Made by a program: the position numbers and the translations under genes. 64,000 nt of DNA from Candidatus Giovannonibacteria bacterium. GTDB lineage: Bacteria > Patescibacteriota > Minisyncoccia > UBA11713 > 2-01-FULL-45-33. Where the stretch lies: assembly GCA_016176295.1 (NCBI GenBank), contig JACOXN010000009.1, positions 3,798-67,797 on the forward strand, written 5' to 3'. Positions 20,449 to 33,645 of this stretch are shown here, piece by piece. How positions within the stretch are numbered: position 1 is the first letter of the stretch; every line of letters begins with the position of its first letter. The notes below the pieces were generated by a model. That model searched no databases. It was not told the DNA's origin and was given only the letters and a program-made list of their open reading frames with translations.

Positions 20449-22158
20449 ATGGCAAAAGGAATTTTAGATGTTTTGGTAACCAACGGAGTCCTTCAGTTAA
20501 AAGATGCGTCCGATATAAAACGAGAAGCCAAACGAAAAAACCTTTCGTTCGAAGACGAGCTTATTTCGCGCGGAATTGACGAACTTGTGATTATGAAAGC
20601 GAAAAGTGAAGCTCTGGGCATTCCACTTTTTATTTTAGGGAGCCGCAAAGTCCCTTTCGACCTGCTTAAACTTGTTCCCGAAGAATCGGCCCGGCACTAT
20701 CAATTCGTTCCCGTGGGCATAGAAAACGGAACGGTATCCATCGGCATCGTGGATCCCGACAACATAGAATCTAAAGAAGCGATGAAATTTATTATCTCGA
20801 GGCTGAACCGTCCGTTTAAATTGGTTTTACTTTCTCCTCATGATTTTGGCTCCGTGCTTGAAGAATATAAGGGGGTTTCCGGCGAAGTTAACAAAGTTTT
20901 GGGCGAACTCGAATCGGCTTTGGCGGATGAGGCGAGCGCGGTGCCGGAGATACAGGCGCAGGCCGCGCCGGAAGTCGAGGATGCGCCAATAACAAAAATG
21001 GTGGCGGTTATGCTCAGGCACGCCACGGAAGGAAAAGCTTCGGATATTCATATCGAGCCCACGAGGGACAGTCTTCGCGTCAGATTCAGGGTTGACGGAG
21101 TTTTGCATACGAGCCTTATTTTACCGCTTAAAGTCCACGATTCAATAATTTCCAGGGTGAAAATATTGACCAACATGCAGTTGGATGAAAAACGTAAGCC
21201 GCAGGACGGCCGCTTTTCCGCTCGAATAGATGAAAAAGAAGTTGACTTTCGTGTTTCCACTTTTCCGACGTATTTCGGCGAAAAAGTGGCCATTCGTATT
21301 TTGGACTCGGAGTCCGGCGTAAAAGATTTGAAAGATCTCGATCTAGAAGAGTACAATTCTGGGCAGTTAAAGCAGGCGTTGGACAAACCTTACGGGCTTA
21401 TTTTGATAACCGGCCCCACAGGTTCCGGGAAATCAACTTCGCTTTATGCGATGTTGAAGGAAGTGAACGAAGAAGGAAGCAATATCGTAAGTTTGGAAGA
21501 TCCGGTCGAGTATGCCATTGAAGGTATCAACCAGTCACAAGTGCGTCCTGAGATCGGCTATGACTTCGCGCAGGGGATCAGGCATATTTTGCGGCAGGAC
21601 CCGGATATCATGATGGTGGGAGAGATACGCGACCGGGAAACCGCAAAACTTGCCATTCACGCGGCGCTCACCGGTCACTTGGTTTTTTCCACTTTGCACA
21701 CCAACAATGCCGCAGGCGTAATACCGCGATTAATAGACATGGGGGTGGATCCGTATCTTATCGCCCCCACGCTTGTCATGGCGATGGGGCAGAGGCTTGT
21801 TAGAAATCTTTGCGAAGAGTCGCGCGAAGCGGTCCCCGTGGAGGGGCAATTGAAAGAAAGGCTGCTCGAAGAGATAGCGGCAATGCCCGAATCCGTTGCC
21901 AAGAATATTCAGCTTCCGGACCACATTTATAAAGCCAAGTCTACTGTGGAGTGCCCCAAAGGGACCCGCGGACGTTCGGCAGTGGTGGAGATGATGACGA
22001 TGAACCCGGAACTTTCCCAGCTCGTTCTTACGCGTCCCACGGAAAAAATAATCATGGATGAAATGAGGAAGCGCGGCATGATATCTATGCACCAGGACGG
22101 CATCATGAAAGTTTTGAAAGGGAAGATCGGCCTCGAAGAACTTCTGGAGGTAATATAA
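20449..22158 (+). CDS. pilB: type IV pilus assembly ATPase PilB (GspE family)
   Basis: Walker A GPTGSGKSTSLYAML, Asp box, His box LTGHLVFSTLHTNNA and N-terminal GSPII-type domains. Confidence 0.9.
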   Translation: MAKGILDVLVTNGVLQLKDASDIKREAKRKNLSFEDELISRGIDELVIMKAKSEALGIPLFILGSRKVPFDLLKLVPEESARHYQFVPVGIENGTVSIGIVDPDNIESKEAMKFIISRLNRPFKLVLLSPHDFGSVLEEYKGVSGEVNKVLGELESALADEASAVPEIQAQAAPEVEDAPITKMVAVMLRHATEGKASDIHIEPTRDSLRVRFRVDGVLHTSLILPLKVHDSIISRVKILTNMQLDEKRKPQDGRFSARIDEKEVDFRVSTFPTYFGEKVAIRILDSESGVKDLKDLDLEEYNSGQLKQALDKPYGLILITGPTGSGKSTSLYAMLKEVNEEGSNIVSLEDPVEYAIEGINQSQVRPEIGYDFAQGIRHILRQDPDIMMVGEIRDRETAKLAIHAALTGHLVFSTLHTNNAAGVIPRLIDMGVDPYLIAPTLVMAMGQRLVRNLCEESREAVPVEGQLKERLLEEIAAMPESVAKNIQLPDHIYKAKSTVECPKGTRGRSAVVEMMTMNPELSQLVLTRPTEKIIMDEMRKRGMISMHQDGIMKVLKGKIGLEELLEVI

Positions 22159-22162
22159 AAAA

Positions 22163-22603
22163 ATGAATGGAACAAAAAAAGGATTTACTTTGATCGAACT
22201 TATGGTGGTGGTTGCCATTATCGCTTTTATAGCGGCCGCGGCTTTAGCTTTTATGTCCACCCCGCGCGCGCGGTCCAGGGATGCAAGGCGCGAAGAAGAT
22301 TTAAAGCAGATACAGAACGCTCTTAGTCTTTATATCAGTAATGTGGGGACTTATCCCGTTTGTGCCACGGAAACCGTTGTGAACGGGACGAGTGACTGTT
22401 TATCGGCGGCGCTTCGAGCGGAAAAAACCATCCCTGTAACTCCCACGGATCCCAAGAATATCATCGGTTCCTGTGGCGACGCGAATATTTACATATATTG
22501 CTACCAATCATTGCTTAATGGACAATCCTTCCAGCTTCGATATGATCTGGAAACCGACGCAGTACCCAATAAATCACCGGGCTGGCAGACCTTTACGCCA
22601 TAG
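22163..22603 (+). CDS. type IV pilin / pseudopilin
   Basis: Class III signal KKGFTLIELMVVVAII (G-1, F+1, E+5). Confidence 0.85.
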   Translation: MNGTKKGFTLIELMVVVAIIAFIAAAALAFMSTPRARSRDARREEDLKQIQNALSLYISNVGTYPVCATETVVNGTSDCLSAALRAEKTIPVTPTDPKNIIGSCGDANIYIYCYQSLLNGQSFQLRYDLETDAVPNKSPGWQTFTP

Positions 22604-22605
22604 TG

Positions 22606-22614
22606 TGCTAATAT
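22606..22614 (+). promoter_or_regulatory. extended -10 box (TGcTAATAT) 6 nt upstream of the REC start codon
   Basis: TGCTAATAT attctt ATG. Confidence 0.45.
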
Positions 22615-22620
22615 ATTCTT

Positions 22621-23001
22621 ATGAAAGGGAAAAAAGTTTTGATCGTCGATGATGATGAGTTTTTGCTGGATATGTACGTCTTGAAGTTCAGGGAAGCGGG
22701 TTTTGAAGTGGAGATCGCCAGGAACGGAGAGGAGGCGGTTGAAAAAGCGGAATCATTAAATCCAGACATAATTTTATTGGACGTTGTCATGCCGAAAACG
22801 GACGGTTTCGACGTTTTGCGGGCGCTCAAGAAAAAAAATGTGGCCCAAAAAGCGCTTCTGTTTCTGCTTACGAATTTAGGACAGAAAGAAGATATTGAAA
22901 GAGGCATGAAATTAGGCGCCAATGATTACATCGTGAAAGCCCATTTTACTCCGTCGGAGGTAGTGGCTAAAGTTAACAGTTACATAGAGAAAACAAAATA
23001 A
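22621..23001 (+). CDS. stand-alone response-regulator receiver (CheY/PilH-like)
   Basis: VLIVDDDEF...DIILLDVVMPKTDGFDVL...KLGANDYIVK. Confidence 0.85.
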   Translation: MKGKKVLIVDDDEFLLDMYVLKFREAGFEVEIARNGEEAVEKAESLNPDIILLDVVMPKTDGFDVLRALKKKNVAQKALLFLLTNLGQKEDIERGMKLGANDYIVKAHFTPSEVVAKVNSYIEKTK

Positions 23002-23002
23002 C

Positions 23003-24070
23003 ATGGACTACGGAAAAATGCTTGATGAATTAATAACCAACGTGGCGGAATCCAACGCATCTGACCTGCATATTTCCGTCGGCCGCCATCCGATGCTCAG
23101 AGTTTCGGGCCAGCTTATTTCATTGAACAAAAAATCCATTCTGACCCCGGAAGACACGGCCGGGCTCGTGGCCTCGATGATAACCAAAGAGGAGTACGAG
23201 AAATTTTTGAATGAAAAAGAGCTCGACTTTTCTTATTCGTATAAAGACAAGGTCCGCTTTAGGGTCAATGCTTACTATCAAAAGGGGTACATTGGCGTGG
23301 CGATGAGGCTGATTCCGGTTAACATTAAAAAATTTGAGGAATTGGCCCTGCCGCCGGTTTTGCAGGAATTCGCGATGAAAGAACAGGGTTTCTTCCTAGT
23401 CGTAGGGCCGACCGGGCACGGAAAATCCACGACTTTGGCCTCGCTTGTGGACGTCATAAATCATACGCGCACCGAGCGGATAATTACCATTGAAGACCCG
23501 ATGGAATATATTTTCACGCCTGACCGTTCCATGGTGGACCAGCGCGAGATAGGCGGGGACACCAAAGATTTCACTACGGCTTTAAGGTCGGTCTTCCGGC
23601 AGGACGTGAACGTCATCATGATCGGGGAAATGCGCGACCACGAAACAATGGCCGCTGCCGTTACCGCCGCAGAAACCGGCCACATGGTTTTTTCGTCGCT
23701 TCACACAAATAACGCAGCTCAGACCATCGATCGCATAATCGACTCTTTCCCGGCGGCGCAGCAGGGACAGATAAGAGCGCAGCTTTCCAACACTTTGGTA
23801 GGTATTTTTTCACAGCGGCTTCTTCCGCGCATTTCTGGAGGCCTTGTTCCGGCTTATGAACTTTTGATATCAAATTCCGCGGTGCGTAATCTCATCCGCG
23901 AAAATAAAGTGCATGAGCTTGACTTGGTTATCGAGACTGGTTCTGATTCGGGAATGGTGAGCTTCAACCGTTCTTTGGTGGACCTCGTCAGGAGAGGAGA
24001 AATTACGATGGAAAACGCCCTCGCATTCTCCTTGAATCCCAAAGAACTGCGCTCAATGGCAGGTTATTGA
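23003..24070 (+). CDS. pilT: type IV pilus retraction ATPase PilT
   Basis: ASDLHISVG, Walker A GPTGHGKSTTL, ETGHMVFSSLHTNNA and the AIRNLIRE-like motif SAVRNLIRENK. Confidence 0.9.
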   Translation: MDYGKMLDELITNVAESNASDLHISVGRHPMLRVSGQLISLNKKSILTPEDTAGLVASMITKEEYEKFLNEKELDFSYSYKDKVRFRVNAYYQKGYIGVAMRLIPVNIKKFEELALPPVLQEFAMKEQGFFLVVGPTGHGKSTTLASLVDVINHTRTERIITIEDPMEYIFTPDRSMVDQREIGGDTKDFTTALRSVFRQDVNVIMIGEMRDHETMAAAVTAAETGHMVFSSLHTNNAAQTIDRIIDSFPAAQQGQIRAQLSNTLVGIFSQRLLPRISGGLVPAYELLISNSAVRNLIRENKVHELDLVIETGSDSGMVSFNRSLVDLVRRGEITMENALAFSLNPKELRSMAGY

Positions 24071-24125
24071 TCGGCCTAAATTCGAACTGTGAACAACTTT
24101 GCGGCAATTTTACCGTATTTTGTCG

Positions 24126-24131
24126 TATAAT
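24126..24131 (+). promoter_or_regulatory. -10 box TATAAT 6 nt upstream of the pilC ATG
   Basis: TATAAT ttagtc ATG. Confidence 0.45.
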
Positions 24132-24137
24132 TTAGTC

Positions 24138-25355
24138 ATGCCGCAATTTAGCTATAAAGCTCGTACATCGGAAGGAGAAGAGACCCACGGAGTTGTGGAC
24201 GCAGCAACCGTCGACCTTGCCGTTTCGTCCCTCCAGAGGAAAAACTTTCTTGTGACCGAGATTGAGCCGATGGATGAGCCGGTGGGTTTGGGGAAGGCCG
24301 TAAAGGCTCTGAACCCTTTCGAGCGCGTCAAGCAGGAAGATGTAGTCATTATTTCGCGGCAGCTCTCAACTCTTTTTGAGGCTAAAGTGCCGGTCGTGGA
24401 GTCAATGAAAATAATAGTCAATGAAACGCAAAAAGGCGTTTTGCGAAAGCATTTCATCGGTCTTTTGGACGATATCCAGGGAGGCCTTTCGATGTCGCAG
24501 GCGATGGACCGGCATCCGGAAGTTTTCTCAAAATTTTACGTTGCGATGGTGAGGTCCGGGGAAGAATCGGGACGCCTTGAAGAAGTTTTCAAATATTTGG
24601 CTGATTATCTGGAACATTCCTATGAGTTGACAAGCAAAGCTAAGAACGCGCTGATCTATCCCGTTTTCGTGCTTTTGGCTTTCGTCGGGGTCATTGTGCT
24701 TATGATGACAACAGTCATTCCGCGGCTTTCCACGATATTGACGGAGGCCGGGCAGGAATTGCCTTTTTACACCAAAGTTGTCATTGGGATGTCTAATTTT
24801 CTGAGGAACTTCGGTGTTATCCTTTTGATTTTGCTTGCGGTGGGGGTCGTGATGGCTGTCCAATATTCCAGAACCAAAGCCGGAAAGGAGTATTTTTCGC
24901 GCCTGCTATTGGCCATTCCGGTCATTGGAGGGCTTTTCCGCAAGATATATCTTGCGCGGATATCGGACAATCTGCACACACTTTTGTCGGGGGGGATAAC
25001 GGTCGTGAGATCTCTAGAGATCTCGGCTGACGTTGTGGGTAACGAGGTTTACCGCAAAATTCTTCTTGAAGCCATGGAAGGCGTGAGAGGCGGAAGCACG
25101 ATATCGGACGCATTCGCACGTTACGAGGATATTCCTCCTTTGTTTACCCAAATGGTCAAAGTAGGCGAGGAAGCCGGAAGACTGGAGAATATTTTGAACA
25201 GTTTGTCGGGTTTTTACATGCGGGATGTGGATAATCTGATAAGCAACCTTGTGAGCCTTATTGAACCTATGCTTATCGTGGGCTTAGGCTTGGGAGTGGG
25301 ATTTTTGGTTGCATCGGTGCTTTTGCCGATTTACAACCTGGCAAGCGCATTTTAG
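24138..25355 (+). CDS. pilC: type IV pilus platform protein PilC (GspF family)
   Basis: Two GspF repeats (SRQLSTLFEAKVPV... and ISDNLHTLLSGGITV...) and three TM segments. I set the start at ATG 24138 (MPQFSYKA). Confidence 0.88.
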   Translation: MPQFSYKARTSEGEETHGVVDAATVDLAVSSLQRKNFLVTEIEPMDEPVGLGKAVKALNPFERVKQEDVVIISRQLSTLFEAKVPVVESMKIIVNETQKGVLRKHFIGLLDDIQGGLSMSQAMDRHPEVFSKFYVAMVRSGEESGRLEEVFKYLADYLEHSYELTSKAKNALIYPVFVLLAFVGVIVLMMTTVIPRLSTILTEAGQELPFYTKVVIGMSNFLRNFGVILLILLAVGVVMAVQYSRTKAGKEYFSRLLLAIPVIGGLFRKIYLARISDNLHTLLSGGITVVRSLEISADVVGNEVYRKILLEAMEGVRGGSTISDAFARYEDIPPLFTQMVKVGEEAGRLENILNSLSGFYMRDVDNLISNLVSLIEPMLIVGLGLGVGFLVASVLLPIYNLASAF

Positions 25356-25395
25356 CTGCTTTGCCGCGCCGAAGTCTTGGCGAAGGCGGGTGTGG

Positions 25396-25422
25396 ATAAA
25401 GCCATTTAGCTTTATTTTTTTT
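25396..25422 (+). terminator. intrinsic terminator after pilC
   Basis: ATAAAGC-CATTTA-GCTTTAT followed by a T8 run. Confidence 0.65.
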
Positions 25423-25526
25423 AGGACTATAATGAAATGAACAACGTTATGCCATTTAAAGCATAAGTAAATCAAGGTCGAATCTGTTTTATTAAATTTT
25501 TATCAGCTTAAAAATTTAACACACAA

Positions 25527-26036
25527 ATGAAAAAAATTGGAAAAAAAGGTTTTACTTTGATAGAACTCTTGGTGGTTATCGCCATTATCGGTATTTTGGC
25601 TTCGGTTGTCTTGGCTTCATTGAACAGCGCGCGGATGAAATCGCGCGATGCCAGAAGAATTGCGGACCTCAACCAGATAAGATTGGCCTTGGAATTAAGG
25701 GCCGACGCCAACTCTGCCGAATATCCAGATGACATTTACGCCGCTTCACCGAACGGCCTTGCCCCGACCTACATTGCCGTGGTTCCGAAAGACCCGAATG
25801 GCGCCAACTATAAGTACGACAACTTGGATGCCGCAGCAGGAGGCGCATGCGCAGTGGCAGATGTAGTAGGTTCATGTTTGTATTACCACATGGGCGCGGT
25901 GCTTGAAGAAGCAACGAACAAGGCTTTGACCACAGATGTGGACTTGGCTGTAGCAAACTTCGGTTTTGCCGGGCTCAGCACTGATTGCGGCACAACAGAT
26001 GGCGCTACTGACAATTGTTATGACCTCGCCCCGTAA
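25527..26036 (+). CDS. type IV pilin (likely major pilin)
   Basis: KKGFTLIELLVVIAIIGILASVVL. It has its own promoter region and a terminator on each side. Confidence 0.85.
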   Translation: MKKIGKKGFTLIELLVVIAIIGILASVVLASLNSARMKSRDARRIADLNQIRLALELRADANSAEYPDDIYAASPNGLAPTYIAVVPKDPNGANYKYDNLDAAAGGACAVADVVGSCLYYHMGAVLEEATNKALTTDVDLAVANFGFAGLSTDCGTTDGATDNCYDLAP

Positions 26037-26068
26037 TTCCTCGTAAGCTAATTCAGAACTCAAAACAT

Positions 26069-26116
26069 CCGGCATCGCCTCCGCCGTTTGGCGGATGGCG
26101 GAGCCGGGTGTTTTTG
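26069..26116 (+). terminator. GC-rich hairpin terminator after the pilin gene
   Basis: CCGGC...TCCGCC-GTTT-GGCGGA...GCCGG followed by GTGTTTTTGTG. Confidence 0.55.
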
Positions 26117-26137
26117 TGTAGATTTTTTACCCCACAT

Positions 26138-26158
26138 GATAGAAGTCCGACTTCTCTC
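26138..26158. repeat. REP family 2 palindrome, copy a (3' flank of RAYT-2)
   Basis: GATAGAAGTCCGACTTCTCTC, 8 nt from the RAYT-2 stop. Confidence 0.8.
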
Positions 26159-26165
26159 ACTTCTC

Positions 26166-26858
26166 TTATTCTGCTTTTTTCTCCAATGCAATATCATCTA
26201 AATCTTCAATATTTCCGTCTTTAAGCCACTGAATAATGTTGTTTTTATATTGTTGTGGAGTTTCAAAGACCTCTTTGAGTAATTTATTATCAATAATCTC
26301 AAAAAAATTATTTTTTCCAATATAATATGGATAACTAGACCAGCGATAGGATTCTAAAAAACTTACGGTCTGATTTAAATTCTTGACATTAGCTTGTCTC
26401 ATTTTAGGTAAGTTTATTCCAATTGGGTTTAGATGAATGTAATGTGGTAAATACATAAAATATTTATCATCCTTGATTAACGCGCATTTATATTTTCCTT
26501 GAAATAATGGGCCGACTCTTTTGTATCTGAGATTAAAATAATTTGTGTAACCGGTTCCTAATTTGCGGATAAACTCTGTTATTCCATTTTCGGCTATCTG
26601 TTTTACCATCAGGTGGTAATGATTTGGCATGAGAACAAAGGCAAGAATTTCCACCAACTTCTCCCTATCTTTTGATAGAAGTCCGACTTCTCTCACGTTA
26701 CTTTTACGGTTGCCGTTTATAAAAGGGTATGTATCATTAAAGACATATAAACCGCGCATAAATCTTTCCCGATCTAAATCATCAAGAAAAATTTCTCTCT
26801 TTTCTACTCCTCGGTTAAATATATGATAAATTTCGTCAATTGCCGGTTTTACTCGCAT
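26166..26858 (-). CDS. REP-associated tyrosine transposase (RAYT), copy 2
   Basis: YHIFNRGVEKR, HUH motif MPNHYHLMV, GTGYTNYFNLRYKRVGPLFQGKYK and Tyr in LPHYIHLNP. I set the start at ATG 26858 (MRVKPAIDE), because the upstream ORF extension is just the translated REP. Confidence 0.8.
   Translation of the reverse strand: MRVKPAIDEIYHIFNRGVEKREIFLDDLDRERFMRGLYVFNDTYPFINGNRKSNVREVGLLSKDREKLVEILAFVLMPNHYHLMVKQIAENGITEFIRKLGTGYTNYFNLRYKRVGPLFQGKYKCALIKDDKYFMYLPHYIHLNPIGINLPKMRQANVKNLNQTVSFLESYRWSSYPYYIGKNNFFEIIDNKLLKEVFETPQQYKNNIIQWLKDGNIEDLDDIALEKKAE
26674..26694. repeat. REP family 2 palindrome, copy b, inside the RAYT-2 coding sequence
   Basis: GATAGAAGTCCGACTTCTCTC, identical to copy a. It is translated on the minus strand as ..VREVGLLSK.. 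Confidence 0.8.
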
Positions 26859-26871
26859 GGTAGGAGTATAT

Positions 26872-26892
26872 GATAGAAGTCGGACTTCTATC
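26872..26892. repeat. REP family 2 palindrome, copy c (5' flank of RAYT-2, between RAYT-2 and pilD)
   Basis: GATAGAAGTCGGACTTCTATC, part of the perfect 23-nt palindrome TGATAGAAGTC-G-GACTTCTATCA. Confidence 0.8.
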
Positions 26893-26935
26893 AAGAGCTT
26901 TAATTCATGCTAGAGTAATGAGGTATAATATATTT

Positions 26936-27715
26936 ATGCAAATACTTTTTGGATTTATTGTTTTTATATTCGGCACCATTATCGGGAGTTTTTTGAACGT
27001 TGTGCTTTTGAGAAAAAATACCGGCAAATCGCTGGTTTTTGGCGGTTCGAAATGCTTTTCCTGCGGAAAGAACTTAAGTGCCAGAGAGTTGATTCCCATT
27101 TTGAGTTTTCTCCGGCAAAGGGGGAAGTGTTTTCATTGCGGCTCTAAAATATCATGGCAGTACCCGCTGGTTGAGTTTTTGACGGGCTTAATCGCAATCT
27201 CTGTTTATTCCCAGGTCGGTCTCGGTTTTTCCATGGCTTTTTACTTCGTCGCATTTGCCGCGCTCTTTTTGGTGTCGGCTTATGATTTCAAGCACAAGAT
27301 AATCGATTCGCAGCTTTTATATATTTTTGGAGCTTTTGCAGTTGTCGTTTTTTTTCTCCGCGGAAATTATTTAAGCGACATTATTTCCTCCGCCTCCATC
27401 GCCTTGTTTTTCTATCTTCTCTGGTTTTTTTCCGGTGGGAAATGGATGGGGAGGGGAGATACCGATGTTTCTTTTTTTATTTCGCTTTTTCTTGGTTTTC
27501 CCTTGAATTTGTCATCAATAATTCTCAGTTTTTGGATAGGAGGCATTTGGGCGATAATTCTTCTTTTACTTAGCCAGATTGAAAGGCGTTTTATTTCGCG
27601 CCGATTCCATTTAAAAAGCGAAATTCCGCTGGCGCCATTTATGGCGCTTGCCGCGTTCTTCTCCTGGTTTTTTTCATCACCGCTCTTGTTTTTATTGGAC
27701 AAATTATTTTTTTAG
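26936..27715 (+). CDS. pilD: prepilin peptidase PilD (A24 family)
   Basis: GSFLNVVLLR, Cys pairs CFSCGKNL...CFHCGSKI, and the aspartyl-protease region GRGDTDV. ATG 26936 is preceded by TATAAT-N7. Confidence 0.85.
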   Translation: MQILFGFIVFIFGTIIGSFLNVVLLRKNTGKSLVFGGSKCFSCGKNLSARELIPILSFLRQRGKCFHCGSKISWQYPLVEFLTGLIAISVYSQVGLGFSMAFYFVAFAALFLVSAYDFKHKIIDSQLLYIFGAFAVVVFFLRGNYLSDIISSASIALFFYLLWFFSGGKWMGRGDTDVSFFISLFLGFPLNLSSIILSFWIGGIWAIILLLLSQIERRFISRRFHLKSEIPLAPFMALAAFFSWFFSSPLLFLLDKLFF

Positions 27716-27760: not shown

Positions 27761-30700
27761 ATGGCAGAGGAGAAAAAAGAGCCGGAAGGGTTTTCATTTC
27801 CGCGGATGGAAGAGGAAGTTATTTCGTTTTGGAATAATAACAATATTTTTGAAAAAAGCGTGCAAAAAAGGAAATCCCGCGGGAAAAAGAGCCGAAAAGA
27901 ATTCATCTTTTTCGAGGGTCCTCCTACGGCGAATGGAAAACCCGGAGTGCACCACGTGGAGGCGCGATCTTTCAAAGACATAATTTTGCGTTATAAAACT
28001 ATGCGCGGCTATCATGTTCCGCGCCGCGCCGGTTGGGATACTCACGGCCTTCCGGTGGAAGTGGAAGTTGAAAAAGACCTTGGTTTGAGAAGCAAAAAAG
28101 ATATCGAAGAATACGGGGTCGCGGCATTCAACAAAAAATGCCGGGAATCGGTCTGGCAGTATAAGGAGCTTTGGGAAAAAATGACGGACCGCATGGGTTT
28201 CTGGATAGACATGAAAAAAGCCTATGTAACATACGAAAATTCTTATATCGAATCCCTTTGGTGGATAATAAAAGAATTCGCCAAAAATAAATTTTTATAC
28301 GAGGACTTCAAAGTGCTTCCCTGGTGCGCGCGATGCGGTACGGCGCTCTCTTCTCACGAGCTGGCGCAGGGATATGAAAAAATAAAAGAGGAATCAGTTT
28401 ATGTGAAATTTCCCGTGAAAGGCGGAGGAGGCAAATTGAGTTTTCTCGCCTGGACCACGACTCCTTGGGCCCTGCCGGGAAACACCGCTCTTGCTGTAAA
28501 CCCGGATATAAATTATGTTTTCGCGAAAATAGGTGACGAAACCCTTATTTTGGCCGAATCGCGCATTCAGCTATTGGATGAGTTTCATCCTGAAATTTTG
28601 AAAAAAGTGAAAGGCAGTGAACTCAAAACTATTGAATATGAAGCTTTGTATCCCTTGCCAGAAGTAAAATACAGAGTAGTGACGGGCGATTTTGTTTCCG
28701 TCGCGGACGGCTCCGGCATCGTACACATTGCTCCCGCGTTCGGAGACGATGACTTTCAGCTTTCCAGAAAAGTTACGCTCAGTATCTTGTTTACGACCGG
28801 CGAAGATGGCCGCATGATAACTCCGGGCAAACCCTGGGACGGAAAAAAATTTAAGGAAGCAAATCCGGTCATCATTGAAAATCTGAAAGAAAGAGGACTT
28901 TTGTTTAAAATCGAAACCTACGAGCACGATTATCCTTTTTGCTGGCGGTGCAAATCGCCGCTCATGTATTTTGCGCGGAAAGCCTGGTGGGTGGACGTGA
29001 ACAAGGTACGGCCTAAATTAATCGCGAACAATGATGTTATTAGTTGGCATCCGGAACATATAAAGCATGGCCGGTTCGGGGAATGGCTGAAAGAAGAAAA
29101 GAATTGGGCTTTTTCAAGAGAAAGATATTGGGGAACTCCTCTTCCGGTCTGGAGATGCGCCGCTTGCGGAGAATGGGAAGCTTTAGGCTCGATAGCAGAG
29201 CTGAAAAAAAGAAGCGTTGTTTCCGGGAACCGCTACATTATAATGCGGCACGGGCAAGCGGAAAACAATGTTCTTAAATTGATAAACAGCGACCTTTCAA
29301 AGAACCATTATAAATTAACGCCGAAAGGGAAAAAAGAGATTGAGACATCCATAAAGAAACTTAAAAAACAAAAAATAAAGCCGGATGTAATATTTGCTTC
29401 TCCTTTTTTAAGAACGAAACAGACCGCGGAAATGGTGGCGGAAGCTTTAGGTGTCTCTGCGCAAAACATCAAGTTTGATGCCAGGCTCGGAGAAGTTAAC
29501 ACCGGTATTTTTGCCAACGGATTTCCCGGAAAGTATCACGAATATTTTGCTAACCGCGTGGAAAAATTCACAAAGACCCCGCCGGATGGAGAGAATCTAA
29601 CCGACATAAAAAAAAGGTTTTGGGCGGCGATTTCGGAAGCGGAGGCGGAATATAAAAATAAAACCATTTTAGTCGTGAGCCATGAGTACACGCTTTGGAT
29701 GGCGTGGACCGCTTTTTTGGGGTATTCCGATGAAGAATCATCGGCGGAAAAGGAAAAAAGAGGCAAGGATTTTCTTAAGACTGCCGAATTTATGGAAGTT
29801 GAGTTGAGTCCGATTCCGCGCGATGAAAATTTAATTTTGGATCTCCACAAACCTTACATAGACGGAGTGAAGCTTACATGCAGGTGCGGAGGGGAAATGG
29901 CGAGAGTTAAAGAGGTGGTGGATGTATGGTTCGATTCAGGCTCAATGCCTTTCGCCCAGGATCATTACCCTTTCGATACCAATAAACCGGCATATCCCGC
30001 TGATTATATAACCGAAGCCGTGGATCAGACACGCGGCTGGTTCTATAATTTGCTCGCGGTAGGGACGCTTTTGGGTAAAGACGCTCCTTATAAAAATGTT
30101 ATTTCCCTGGGCCATGTGCTGGATACCAAAGGAAAAAAGATGTCCAAATCACTCGGGAACATAGTGGAACCTTTGCCGCTTATCGAAAAATACGGCGCGG
30201 ATCCCGTGCGCTGGTATTTTTTTACCATTAATCAGCCGGGAGACCCGAAGCTTTTTAAGGAAGATGACATAAAAGACACCCAGCGCAGATTTTTCATGAT
30301 ATTCTGGAACATTTTCCAATTTTGGAAACTGTATTCTTCCGGGCGGCCGGACCGCCATGGGGCGGTGCGGCCGCCAAAAACTAACTTGCTCATCAACCAA
30401 TGGGTTTTAACGAGGCTTTCTGCCGTGCAATCGGATGTAACCGGCAAACTGGAAGCTTACGACATTGTGGGAGCGGCGCGCGCGCTTGAGAGTTTTGTAA
30501 CGGAAGACGTTTCGCGCTGGTACGTAAGGAGAATAAGAGGCGCAATTAAAGACCCGAAAAAATCCAAAGAAATCGAAGCGGTTTTGCGGCATTTACTTTC
30601 CGAAATTTCTAAACTTTTGGCTCCTTTCGCCCCGTTCATTTCGGAGAAGGTCTGGTTGGAACTCGGGAACAAGCAGAGCGTCCATTTGGAGGACTGGCCG

Positions 30701-31201: not shown

Positions 31202-31738
31202 ATGGCCTCGGAATATTTTAAAACAGAAGGTCTGGTAATGAAAAAGTTCCTTTGGGGCGAGGCGGATTTTCTCGTGCGTGTTTTGACGCGCGACTTCGGA
31301 AAGATCGATATTCTGGCTAAAGGGGCGCGGAAGACCAACTCAAAACTTAATTCGCACTTGGATGTTTTGAACCATATCCGTCTTTCTTTTATCAGGAATG
31401 GCGACAACATACCCACATTTACCGACGCGGATATTTTATCGGCGAATGGCCGCTGGTTCGCGGATGCAGTTTCCTTCAAAGTATCGGGAAAAATTACCCG
31501 TGTTTTGGACATGGTGGTGCCGATTGGAGTGGCGGATGAAGTCCTGTTCTTTCTGGCTCTCGGTTTTTTTGGAAGGGAATATCCCGATATGGAAAAAGCT
31601 TCGCTGAATTTTCTCAGCAGTTTTCTGGCACACGAAGGTTACAGCGAGGCCGTCGGCATATCGCAGTCGTCTTTGGAGTCATTGCCCCATAACGTTTCAG
31701 AGGCTATAATCAAATTATGGCCGGTCTTGATGATTTAA
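31202..31738 (+). CDS. recO: DNA repair protein RecO, short form (178 aa)
   Basis: TEGLVMKKFLWGEADFLVRVLTRDFGKIDILAKGARKTNSKL is a RecO N-terminal OB-fold signature. No C-terminal zinc-finger region is present. Confidence 0.65.
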   Translation: MASEYFKTEGLVMKKFLWGEADFLVRVLTRDFGKIDILAKGARKTNSKLNSHLDVLNHIRLSFIRNGDNIPTFTDADILSANGRWFADAVSFKVSGKITRVLDMVVPIGVADEVLFFLALGFFGREYPDMEKASLNFLSSFLAHEGYSEAVGISQSSLESLPHNVSEAIIKLWPVLMI

Positions 31739-33645
31739 GGAAAAGGCTTTATAAGAAGGAGGAAAATTTTGGGGAACGGATGGTTTCGCCGGATCTTAAC
31801 CGTCCCACGCAGGGGCGGAGAATTGCCTGGGAAAGCGAAACAAATTCCGCGCAGGCGCCGAAAAAAAATTCTAAAATATTCTGGGGTTCGGTAACCGGGC
31901 TAGTATTTCTCATTACTGCTCTGCTTTTTGTATACTTTTCCGGTTTTTCCTCGATATTCAAACTGCAATCGCTCGATGTTTTTTTGACGGGTGAAAAAGA
32001 GATAAAAAGCGGGGGACTTACCGTTTGGGAAGTGAAAGTAACCAACAACAACACCGTCCCCGTGCAGGATGTTGTCATAATTTTCAATTATCCGCCGGAT
32101 GCCACCCCAGGTTCTTCCAAAGCAAAAGTGGTGACAGGACTCTCTTCCAATGAAAAAGTTTTTCGCGAGAGAAGACCGATAGGGGTTTTGGCTCCGAACG
32201 AAACCATATCGGAGAGTTTCGACGCTTTCGTTTTCGGCAAGGCTGGCATGACCGCAGAAGTTTCGGCCGTAGTCGAGTACCGCCCGGAGGGCGCGAGCTC
32301 CGTTTTTGCCAAAGACGGTTCTTTTTCTTTCCATGTGGGGCGTTCTCCTATATCGGTTTCTTTCGATATGCCGGAGGAGATACGCATCGGGCAGAATGTC
32401 GAGTTCAAAGTTAGTTATATTTCTCAGGCGTCTCAGTCGATAGACGACCTTTTTTTGAAATTGACTCTTCCCACTGATTTTGAGCTCGGCTCCGCTTCGC
32501 CTCTTCCCTTAACAAAAAATTACCCGGTGGAGCCCGGTCCGCGGGACAGGATTTGGAAACTGGAAAAGTTGGAACCCGCTAAAGGAGGCTCGATTGCGCT
32601 TTCCGGGGTTATTTCCGGCTCTGAACTGGAACCTAAGAATTTCAACGCAGTTATCGGAGTTCTGGACAAGCGGTCCGGAGAATTCCTGACATACGACGAA
32701 TCGTCGGAGGTCGTTATACTGCGTCCTCTTTTTTTGGAAGTCAGCATGCTTGTAAACGGTGCCAAGGAACATATTTCAAGCCCCGGTGGGAGCGTTATAG
32801 TCAGAATAAATTGGCGCAACAATCTTCCGACCACGGTCAATGATGCCATTTTAGAGGCGCGCCTGGAAGGCTCCGCCATCGATCTTAAAACTGTAAGAGC
32901 GGACAACGGTTCATACCGCCAGTCGAGCGGCAGTATCATCTGGAATGCGGCCAGTTACGAGCCTTTCAGAAATATGGAGCCGGATGACAACGGATCTGTG
33001 GAGTTCACTTTTAAGACCGCAAGCGAACTTTCTTTAAGCTCCACCGATAAGCGGCCGGTTATTAAAATAACGGTAATTCTCAAAAATGGTCTCGATGTCG
33101 CGGGGTTTGAAGGCGTGGACGTCACCGGCACGAGAGTTGTTGAGATACCCGTTTCTTCGAAACTACAGGTTTCCTCACGCGGACTTTACTCAAATTCTTC
33201 AATACCGAACACTGGGCCGCTTCCTCCGAAAGTCGGCGTTGAGACGACCTATTCGGTGGTCTGGTCGCTTACCAACATGACGAACGATCTTGAAAAAGTA
33301 AAAGTTGGAGCCGCGCTCCCGCCTTACATCACATTCAAAAATGTGATTAGCCCCCCCAACGCTGACGTTAAATACGATAAAAATACCGGCGAGGTGACAT
33401 GGAATGTCGGCAGAATTTCGGCCGGCACGGGATTCGTAAAGCCGGCGGTGCAGATAACTTTTCAGATTGGGCTTATCCCGTCATTGGACCAGGTTGGGTT
33501 TACGCCAACTCTTGTAAACGAGGCCATAACGACGGGGAAGGATACTTTCACCAAGGCCGACCTCTCATCGAAAGACCAGAAAATAAGTACATCGCTCACA
33601 GGCGACCCGAGTGTTGGTTTTAATCAAAGGAACGTAACTCAATAA
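31717..33645 (+). CDS. membrane-anchored extracellular protein with beta-sandwich (CARDB/DUF11-like) repeats
   Basis: 642 aa with an N-terminal TM helix (VTGLVFLITALLFVYF). It has repeated segments of the type VWEVKVTNNNTVPVQDVVIIFNYPPDA. The family call is tentative. Confidence 0.5.
   Translation: MAGLDDLRKRLYKKEENFGERMVSPDLNRPTQGRRIAWESETNSAQAPKKNSKIFWGSVTGLVFLITALLFVYFSGFSSIFKLQSLDVFLTGEKEIKSGGLTVWEVKVTNNNTVPVQDVVIIFNYPPDATPGSSKAKVVTGLSSNEKVFRERRPIGVLAPNETISESFDAFVFGKAGMTAEVSAVVEYRPEGASSVFAKDGSFSFHVGRSPISVSFDMPEEIRIGQNVEFKVSYISQASQSIDDLFLKLTLPTDFELGSASPLPLTKNYPVEPGPRDRIWKLEKLEPAKGGSIALSGVISGSELEPKNFNAVIGVLDKRSGEFLTYDESSEVVILRPLFLEVSMLVNGAKEHISSPGGSVIVRINWRNNLPTTVNDAILEARLEGSAIDLKTVRADNGSYRQSSGSIIWNAASYEPFRNMEPDDNGSVEFTFKTASELSLSSTDKRPVIKITVILKNGLDVAGFEGVDVTGTRVVEIPVSSKLQVSSRGLYSNSSIPNTGPLPPKVGVETTYSVVWSLTNMTNDLEKVKVGAALPPYITFKNVISPPNADVKYDKNTGEVTWNVGRISAGTGFVKPAVQITFQIGLIPSLDQVGFTPTLVNEAITTGKDTFTKADLSSKDQKISTSLTGDPSVGFNQRNVTQ

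Follow-up and report, generated by a model that had tools for sequence, protein, structure and literature searches.

Results

A phosphatase domain within the ileS gene

The 64,000-nucleotide stretch of Candidatus Giovannonibacteria DNA analyzed here (assembly GCA_016176295.1, contig JACOXN010000009.1, positions 3,798 to 67,797; hereafter the window) contains an ileS gene for a type-2 isoleucyl-tRNA synthetase (IleRS), the catalytic domain of which is interrupted by a putative histidine phosphatase. Coordinates of the gene and of the features discussed below can be seen in Table 1. The initial annotation, made from the sequence before any profile or database search, described a continuous open reading frame (ORF) of 1146 amino acids (aa) in which the phosphatase parts two blocks that adjoin each other in other IleRS sequences. 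Both statements were borne out: the reading frame is unbroken, and alignments with insert-less IleRS bring the two blocks together and show that the boundaries first proposed for the insert (aa 483-690) were accurate. The same protein is present at NCBI with 100% identity (P0171), where it is named 'class I tRNA ligase family protein [Candidatus Giovannonibacteria bacterium]'.

The synthetase body is that of an IleRS. The TIGR00392 ileS profile scores 856 bits against a cutoff of 621, with the match split in two pieces, and Pfam tRNA-synt_1 covers residues 20-488 and is taken up again past the insert. Anticodon_1 and the type-2 C-terminal DUF5915 are also matched, and the C-terminal zinc-binding domain is absent. 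In a 60-sequence alignment of the clade, the CP1 editing-domain motifs WTTTPW and GxGxVH...D are invariant and the GVHH signature is nearly so; a few relatives (L077, L082) have HMGH in its place. With Gly at the first and His at the third motif position, the window sequence agrees with the type-2 G/AXHH definition, a motif which in IleRS2 confers mupirocin hyper-resistance (Brkic et al. 2023, PMC10485003). Taken together, the profile score, the class-I motifs, the intact CP1 editing domain and the anticodon-binding domain identify the protein as an IleRS. It does not belong to MupA/MupB, for which it scores 746-770 bits against a cutoff of 1900. A full-length AlphaFold2 (AF2) model reached a predicted local distance difference test (pLDDT) value of 90.2 and a predicted template modeling score (pTM) of 0.83. 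The best structure matches of this model are P. megaterium IleRS2 (8C8U), T. thermophilus IleRS (1ILE) and the yeast IleRS-tRNA complex (8WND), and the phosphatase lobe is missing from all of them.

Table 1 Features of the ileS locus. Positions are those of the window; residue numbers are those of the window IleRS.
Feature	Position	Strand	Basis
ileS, type-2 isoleucyl-tRNA synthetase with inserted phosphatase, 1146 aa	27761..31201	+	uninterrupted ORF
Non-canonical class-I signature G62-V-H-H65 (GXHH replacing HXGH)	27944..27955	+	read from sequence
First Cys pair of the CP3 zinc knuckle, C466-A-A-C469, just before the insert	29156..29167	+	invariant, 60-sequence alignment
Inserted segment, aa 483-690 (N-linker, histidine-phosphatase domain, C-linker)	29207..29830	+	alignments, AF2 model
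Part matching the whole free-standing phosphatase of ~190 aa, aa 488-682 (SGNRYIIMRHG ... KTAEFMEVEL)	29222..29806	+	homologue ends
Pfam His_Phos_1 (PF00300) match, aa 493-659	29237..29737	+	E=1e-26, 94.3 bits vs cutoff 21.7
RHG: R496 (phosphate clamp), H497 (predicted nucleophile), G498	29246..29254	+	R and H 100% in 167 copies
S547...R551 (SPFLR; R551, second phosphate-binding Arg)	29399..29413	+	both 100% conserved
E578, predicted general acid (LGEVNTG)	29492..29494	+	E or D in orthologues
H641, second active-site His (VVSHEY)	29681..29683	+	100% conserved
Second Cys pair of the CP3 zinc knuckle, C707-R-C709, just after the insert	29879..29887	+	invariant, 60-sequence alignment
KMSKS loop of IleRS, aa 793-797	30137..30151	+	read from sequence
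recO-like gene, adjoining ileS	31202..31738	+	Pfam RecO_N, E=2e-18

Insertion site and boundaries

The CP3 subdomain connects CP2 with the second half of the Rossmann fold; it contains a zinc-binding motif in T. thermophilus IleRS, and its topology varies between IleRS (PMC7191050). To fix the insertion site, the protein was aligned to 38 IleRS of other genomes and to a set of 69 sequences. The span between the two Cys pairs of CP3 (C466/C469 and C707/C709) is 236 aa in the window IleRS and 226-244 aa in IleRS with the insert, compared to 28-46 aa in insert-less ones, which corresponds to a net insertion of about 195-200 aa. Ordinary IleRS carry only the knuckle of 28-46 aa at this place, and not the equivalent linker that would have made the insert unremarkable. 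The alignments put the putative phosphatase inside the zinc knuckle of CP3 in a type-2 IleRS. In several insert-bearing IleRS (L017, L019, L020, L028, L012), all four zinc-ligand Cys of CP3 are lost and the phosphatase lobe is kept; therefore, the zinc of the knuckle is not needed to hold the insert.

The junctions read ...ELKKR/SVVSGN and ...IPRDEN/LILDLH, and base composition shows no break across them. As initially annotated, they are not of the intein type: no intein family is among the Pfam matches of the window IleRS, and the Cys/Ser/Thr...HN junction residues are missing. Both an intein and an assembly chimera were rejected, since there is no intein signature and the same architecture recurs at the same site elsewhere. 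Modeled alone, the insert forms an alpha/beta/alpha domain (pLDDT 94.5, pTM 0.91), and in the full-length model the insert including both linkers has block pLDDT values of 91-97. The models show a domain that would fold autonomously as an ordered lobe, an outcome that had been left to structure prediction, and that would stay in the mature protein as a well-ordered addition to the synthetase.

Family, catalytic residues and fold of the insert

Assignment to the branch-1 histidine phosphatases had been made from motifs. It is supported by the Pfam His_Phos_1 profile (E=1e-26 in the whole protein and E=3e-28 on the insert alone), and the five motifs quoted (RHG, LTPKGKKE, SPFLR, LGEVNTG and VVSHEY) all lie where they had been placed. 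Conservation was measured on two sets, one of 167 domain copies spanning all motifs and the other of 60 full-length orthologues. Besides R496, H497, S547, R551 and H641, each of which is 100% conserved in the first set, E611 is conserved in 99%, R619 in 98% and E578 in 87% of the copies. In the second set, position 578 is E in 51 of 60 and D in the other 9, and the other catalytic residues are invariant. In an alignment with PspA (4IJ5), R551 corresponds to the Arg of SPLKRT and E578 to the Glu of IEID, and the whole R-H...R...E...H set aligns. The His/Arg/Glu/His set that had been read as apparently intact is indeed kept and conserved. Mean identity among the 60 orthologues is 40% for the insert, 60-64% for the Rossmann halves, 45% for the anticodon-binding region and 40% for the C-terminal domain. 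That the catalytic residues are invariant in an insert averaging 40% identity points to selection on catalysis rather than to slow change overall, and shows what appears to be strict purifying selection on these residues. By these comparisons, the segment of about 195 aa is complete as a branch-1 histidine phosphatase, with H497 as the predicted nucleophile, R496, R551 and H641 as the predicted phosphate clamp and E578 as the predicted acid.

The nearest folds found by Foldseek, small-molecule phosphatases of about 200 aa, are PspA, Rv2419c GpgP, the riboflavin-pathway HFP and dPGMs, with template modeling (TM) scores of 0.70-0.78 and identities of 18-24%. Among the specific NCBIfam families, the insert scored below the cutoff of every one: the best, dPGM_arch (NF038349), gave 77 bits against 225, and CobC gave 53 against 163. 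A dPGM mutase was considered and rejected, with NF038349 as above, TIGR01258 at 35 against 81.7 bits and yeast PGM aligning over the first ~70 residues only. The PspA-type phosphoserine phosphatase family (NF045917), which includes the closest solved structure at 23-24% identity, gave 54.5 bits against a cutoff of 350. SixA (TIGR00249) gave 47 bits against 74.5, with only the N-terminal 75 residues matching. By these values, the insert is a distinct subfamily, and probably a phosphatase rather than a mutase. Basic, RNA-binding-like charge was looked for in the domain and not found (median isoelectric point, pI, ~7.3-7.7). Considering the conserved residues and the predicted fold, we find it very probable that the domain is an active phosphatase.

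Distribution among genomes

PF00300 is present in 120 of the 120 best IleRS matches, which have 46-64% identity to the window protein and come from Giovannoni-, Nealson-, Jorgensen-, Azam-, Niyogi-, Pace- and Parcubacteria. When one genome per species was scanned, about 29 Patescibacteria genomes had the insert, with the whole query covered at 32-46% identity. The insert alone was also searched with HMMER against 1.84 billion cluster representatives (50%-identity clusters), giving 3603 matches at E<=1e-3 and 470 at E<=1e-10. About 100 of the best 150 matches are IleRS or IleRS fragments, and their flanks always end at window residues 481-485 and resume at ~693. Since hundreds of independent assemblies share this architecture and its site, assembly chimerism is excluded, and the recurrence in other IleRS for which the initial annotation had proposed a search is clear. 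This distribution shows the insert to be a trait of the whole Parcubacteria/Paceibacteria IleRS clade, passed on by vertical inheritance. Apparent other host proteins of ~750, 840 and 920-980 aa, with the domain at varying offset, were rejected after BLAST of their flanks, which are IleRS fragments with the same junctions.

The insert-bearing proteins carry various names at NCBI, many being 'class I tRNA ligase family protein' or 'hypothetical protein' and others 'isoleucine--tRNA ligase'; the extra domain is named in none of these records. Several third-party annotation (TPA) bins are labeled 'uncultured Candidatus Saccharibacteria', and their IleRS group with Parcubacteria. Two copies are defective. 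In one (L025:4666-7890), the insert is degenerate, its middle third being deleted and its RHG and second His region kept; in the other (L001:4546-6903), the ileS ORF stops early at 785 aa, soon after the insert. Both may reflect decay of the gene or errors in sequencing.

A free-standing phosphatase gene next to ileS

In sister lineages, homologues of the insert also exist as free-standing proteins of 185-212 aa that start with M..N.YFILRHGE and end with KTGEFRKLN. Their ends match insert residues 488-682, so the free protein corresponds to the whole insert. Metagenomes were scanned with a pattern made from five free-standing sequences; 504 relatives were found and the best 80 were examined, of which 68 are complete free-standing genes for 187-212 aa (hereafter hp) and 11 are IleRS inserts. 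At 45 of the 68 hp loci, ileS lies downstream on the same strand, and in 40 of these 45 it is the immediately next gene. When only loci with at least 600 nucleotides (nt) of downstream sequence are counted, ileS follows hp in 40 of 52. In 14 loci, ileS starts within the end of hp with 4 nt of overlap, and in most the spacing does not exceed 13 nt. The gene for arginyl-tRNA synthetase (ArgRS), argS, is the upstream neighbor of hp in 33 loci, and recO comes after ileS. The IleRS encoded downstream of a free hp are 923-1015 aa long and are all insert-less.

Loci retrieved by looking up the exact protein have the order pyrH, argS, a radical S-adenosylmethionine (radical-SAM) gene or a LigB-like gene, hp, in some cases a gene for a pyridoxal-phosphate (PLP) enzyme, ileS and recO. 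The very next gene after hp is ileS in L132 and L131, and one PLP-enzyme gene lies between them in L128. Extra genes thus part hp from argS with ileS still close, which indicates that it is with ileS that hp stays. At many insert-bearing ileS genes (e.g. L005, L008, L009), argS is directly upstream, leaving no space for a separate hp, and recO is downstream. The phosphatase is therefore either inside IleRS or encoded immediately before an insert-less IleRS, a complementary pattern of the Rosetta-stone kind, which suggests functional coupling with IleRS.

Some of these loci have features of their own. The L128 locus (L128:3838-6600; P0303, 25 contigs, one Parcubacteria lineage) has a HydE/PylB/BioB-like radical-SAM gene between argS and hp, and its divergent PLP-dependent gene between hp and ileS is of the PALP type. 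This gene resembles threonine synthase only weakly (35 bits, the cutoff being 421) and is lineage-specific, and was therefore given no weight. Four loci with a free-standing hp have a second hp paralogue immediately downstream (L059:2369-2947). At L119:5564-10180, the ileS gene after a free-standing hp encodes 1539 aa and contains an intein (Pfam Intein_splicing, ~aa 187-741).

Evolutionary history

A neighbor-joining (NJ) tree was calculated from 880 columns of the IleRS body, with the insert left out and 100 bootstraps. The hp-adjacent IleRS nest within the insert-bearing ones, beside the subclade of L008, L075 and L082, in 83 of the 100 bootstraps. A single clade of insert-bearing IleRS without the hp-adjacent ones was found in 0 of the 100 and was rejected. 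Of the free phosphatases themselves, all 20 that were compared best match inserts of the L008/L075/L082 subclade. As the synthetases and the free phosphatases both point to one subclade, the two proteins have co-diverged across the transition. Three insert-less Patescibacteria (L030, L031, L037) also nest among the insert-bearing IleRS of the NJ tree, which suggests a secondary loss of the insert in them. The simplest reading would be that the domain was inserted once, long ago, and was then extracted or lost a few times. If ileS was duplicated in tandem and the copies degenerated in a complementary manner, hp would come to lie exactly upstream of the remaining synthetase. This direction of change is tentative, the trees being of the NJ kind and the hp-adjacent IleRS lying on long branches, some of them with odd motifs (HYGH with KLSKK, or MGVHH with EMHKS).

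Other hosts of the domain

Among the closest relatives of the insert, the only hosts other than IleRS with a single phosphatase domain are ArgRS, Sua5 and IleRS with two tandem domains. The last are represented by P0104 (1087 aa) and P0079 (1419 aa). In P0140, the phosphatase is fused directly to the C-terminus of ArgRS. We down-weighted this protein as independent functional evidence: argS stands directly before hp in many loci with gaps of 1-4 nt, so that loss of a stop codon is enough to explain the fusion. A C-terminal phosphatase is found on Sua5/YrdC (TsaC) in P0004, P0053 and P0291. P0004 occurs on 7 contigs, with the CCA-adding enzyme two genes away and TGT and TruD further downstream.

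Two further proteins consist of a phosphatase flanked by zinc-knuckle remnants and are without an IleRS body. In P0066 (289 aa; L124:5001-5870, also L125 and L126), CP3 knuckle remnants of both halves are present, and the gene lies in a nonulosonic/sialic-acid-type cluster (Epimerase_2, NeuB x2, CTP_transf_3, HAD, Polysacc_deac_1) on 8 contigs; from its remnants, it looks like a piece of an insert-bearing ileS recruited elsewhere. P0110 is the second such protein. Their existence means that knuckle-flanked phosphatase fragments can survive.

Genes around ileS in the window

Linkage to argS has been lost in the window, and a type IV pilus cluster (PilB, PilT, PilC, pilin, PilD; ~20449-27715) is upstream of ileS instead. 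An IS200-like Y1 transposase gene (26166-26894, minus strand) lies between the pilin and prepilin peptidase genes, about 900 bp upstream of ileS; this gene and the PilD ORF run in opposite directions and overlap at their start regions. Downstream, the recO-like gene is followed directly by a 642-aa ORF (31717-33645, plus strand) with no Pfam match. The gene after recO in related loci has faint DUF7619/CLIPPER-like matches, which suggests a conserved, uncharacterized surface protein. A second histidine phosphatase, an ArgRS gene and a Sua5 gene were looked for in the window and none was found.

Discussion

Proposed function and alternatives

Our proposed explanation is that the domain would be an active phosphomonoesterase working stoichiometrically (1:1) with IleRS as a cis-acting accessory, either mounted covalently on CP3 or co-translated from the same operon. 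We give this explanation as a whole a probability of about 0.5. Its parts differ in strength. Functional coupling of the phosphatase to IleRS is, considering the complementary gene pattern, the likelier state of affairs, and is less certain than phosphatase activity itself. The nature of the substrate is much more tentative: it may possibly be a small molecule or nucleotide of the adenylation cycle. Our favored guess would be a small phosphorylated product or contaminant of the reaction ATP -> aminoacyl-AMP + pyrophosphate (PPi), such as PPi or a nucleotide phosphate, and not tRNA or protein. TsaC/Sua5 has adenylate-forming chemistry in common with IleRS and is not known to bind the tRNA end. 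A small molecule is favored because TsaC/Sua5, the only other independent covalent partner, shares this chemistry, because the nearest folds are small-molecule phosphatases and because the domain is without RNA-binding-like basic charge. The initial annotation had offered Ap4A, aminoacyl-AMP and tRNA 3'-phosphates as possible substrates; for the pocket of a histidine phosphatase, phosphomonoesters are a better fit than Ap4A or acyl-adenylates. In a more ambitious form, the lobe would be a third activity of IleRS integrated with aminoacylation, either hydrolyzing PPi or by-products locally and so driving or policing adenylate formation, or removing a blocking phosphate from tRNA(Ile). We consider this form doubtful. 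If true, it would be a new kind of synthetase-coupled reaction, and it would explain both the translationally coupled hp-ileS partner gene and the TsaC fusion.

Several observations weigh against an accessory role in aminoacylation. We know of no branch-1 histidine phosphatase that acts as a pyrophosphatase. Among synthetases, IleRS alone carries the lobe, which a general product-clearing role leaves unexplained. Insertion in ileS and adjacency to it probably go back to a single historical event, such as tandem duplication with degeneration, of which they are two states, and therefore do not count as two independent signals for coupling. As for the other fusions, the one with ArgRS (P0140) is trivially explained by the adjacency of argS and hp, and the one with Sua5 is rare, being found in three clusters only. 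Of the 52 free-standing genes with sufficient sequence downstream, about 12 have no ileS after them, and the position of P0066 in a sialic-acid cluster indicates that the module can serve unrelated metabolism.

The last two observations are also what would be expected of a housekeeping phosphatase, acting for instance on a phospho-amino acid or a sugar phosphate, that is unrelated to aminoacylation and is kept in CP3 for expression only. CP3 would then be a permissive surface loop of an essential, constitutively expressed protein, and the adjacency in the sister lineages a by-product of excision. The nearest sequence and fold relatives, PspA, GpgP and HFP, are metabolic phosphatases, as this explanation would have it; P0066 has its knuckle remnants in a cluster of the NeuB/NeuC/NeuA type; CP3 is structurally variable among IleRS (PMC7191050); and tandem duplication with degeneration would place hp before ileS without any selection for linkage. 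Passive carriage fits less well with the adjacency of hp and ileS, which is kept with overlapping codons across highly diverged IleRS subtypes (GIHH/KMSKS, HYGH/KLSKK and MGVHH/EMHKS), and kept while other genes enter between argS and hp. Nor would it predict that the large majority of the clade retains an insert for which clean loss is possible, as in L030, L031 and L037, or that the domain was independently fused to TsaC/Sua5, another adenylate-forming, translation-related enzyme. We hold such hitch-hiking to be a real but minor prospect. An artefact or selfish element has next to no chance of being correct, whether it be a chimeric assembly, an intein or some mobile insertion that has no function or is removed. 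The IS200-like transposase on the opposite strand ~900 bp upstream and the intein in a related ileS (L119) could be quoted in its favor; yet hundreds of independent assemblies have the domain nested at this very site, with insert identity as low as 32%, intein matches and junction residues are missing, frame and composition are unbroken, and the catalytic residues are invariant.

Two other substrates would keep the phosphatase tied to IleRS. If it acted on tRNA ends, as the initial annotation had considered, it would remove a 3'-phosphate, 2',3'-cyclic phosphate or 3'-pyrophosphate from the CCA end, serving end healing or immunity where ends are blocked by damage or by toxin modification. The hosts IleRS, ArgRS and TsaC are all tRNA-related, the Sua5 fusion gene lies two genes from the CCA-adding enzyme with TGT and TruD further on, and CP insertions of class Ia synthetases are on the side of the catalytic domain that is approached by the acceptor arm. 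However, TsaC is not known to handle the tRNA 3' end, the domain has a near-neutral median pI with no basic surface signature, its nearest folds are all small-molecule enzymes with a capped pocket, and to our knowledge no branch-1 histidine phosphatase acts on RNA ends; this substrate is unlikely. Even less likely is a protein phosphatase or regulatory module that acts on pSer, pThr or pHis of IleRS or of a partner, for example by reversing an inhibitory phosphorylation by a kinase toxin, or that senses a phosphorylated ligand without turnover. The superfamily does include SixA, PGAM5 and Sts-1, and kinase toxins targeting aminoacyl-tRNA synthetases exist, such as HipA on GltX. SixA is among the weaker NCBIfam matches, but under its cutoff (47 against 74.5 bits), and no kinase was seen in the gene neighborhoods examined. 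A sensor without turnover would have no use for the general acid E578, and yet E or D is present there in 60 of 60 orthologues.

Significance

Aminoacyl-tRNA synthetases are among the best-studied enzymes, and bacterial ones rarely gain new catalytic domains; the nested domains that are known in them, e.g. CP1, are synthetase-specific editing modules. In the IleRS described here, the catalytic domain of an essential synthetase houses a phosphatase of a generic kind that appears to be active, and does so throughout a large radiation of ultra-small bacteria. The inserted versus co-translated pattern predicts a physical and functional partnership between IleRS and the phosphatase. If the coupling is real, it would be a new auxiliary reaction of tRNA charging, or an immunity or quality-control strategy, in organisms of minimal metabolism. 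It is also a natural insertion of one enzyme into another, and probably its reversal as well, which is useful for protein engineering at CP3. We regard the anatomy and distribution of the insert as solid, and the partnership with IleRS as well supported but not proven.

In the literature searched, which left most subscription journals outside, we came upon no account of a synthetase with a histidine phosphatase inside it, nor of an operon of hp and ileS. The AARS Online paper describes neither, and the IleRS2 phylogeny paper (PMC10485003) mentions no phosphatase and no candidate-phyla sequences. As the sequences and their precomputed Pfam architecture are already public, the novelty is in recognition and interpretation and not in data.

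Comparison with known systems

In body fold, DUF5915-type C-terminus and GVHH signature, the window protein is like IleRS2 (Brkic et al. 2023, PMC10485003; 8C8U, 1ILE), and its CP3 zinc knuckle is like that of T. thermophilus IleRS. Unlike any solved or described IleRS2, it has about 200 extra residues in CP3. An IleRS carrying an additional enzymatic domain is known as NCBIfam NF040702 ('isoleucine--tRNA ligase, N-acetyltransferase domain-containing'). There, however, the extra domain is a GNAT, and the window protein, with 303 bits against a cutoff of 1999, is therefore not a member.

The insert shares fold, size, the R-H-R-E-H set and a short helical cap with stand-alone branch-1 phosphatases (PspA 4IJ5, Rv2419c, PhoE/CobC-type, HFP 9MMH), which differ from it in being free proteins in metabolic contexts with no link to a synthetase. 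Covalent joining of a histidine phosphatase to another enzyme has precedents in the RNase H/acid phosphatase (Rv2228c type, NF005567; P0016), which is a nucleic-acid enzyme, and in PFKFB. These fusions are end to end, whereas the insert is nested in a catalytic domain, and its NF005567 score is 62 against a cutoff of 326. As an autonomous domain nested in the Rossmann fold, the insert resembles in arrangement the CP insertions of class Ia synthetases, namely the CP1 editing domain and the leucine-specific domain of leucyl-tRNA synthetase (LeuRS), which add hydrolytic or tRNA-handling activity to the synthetase. Those domains are synthetase-specific folds with no known free enzyme counterpart, in contrast to the insert, which belongs to a general superfamily and is also found as a separate gene.

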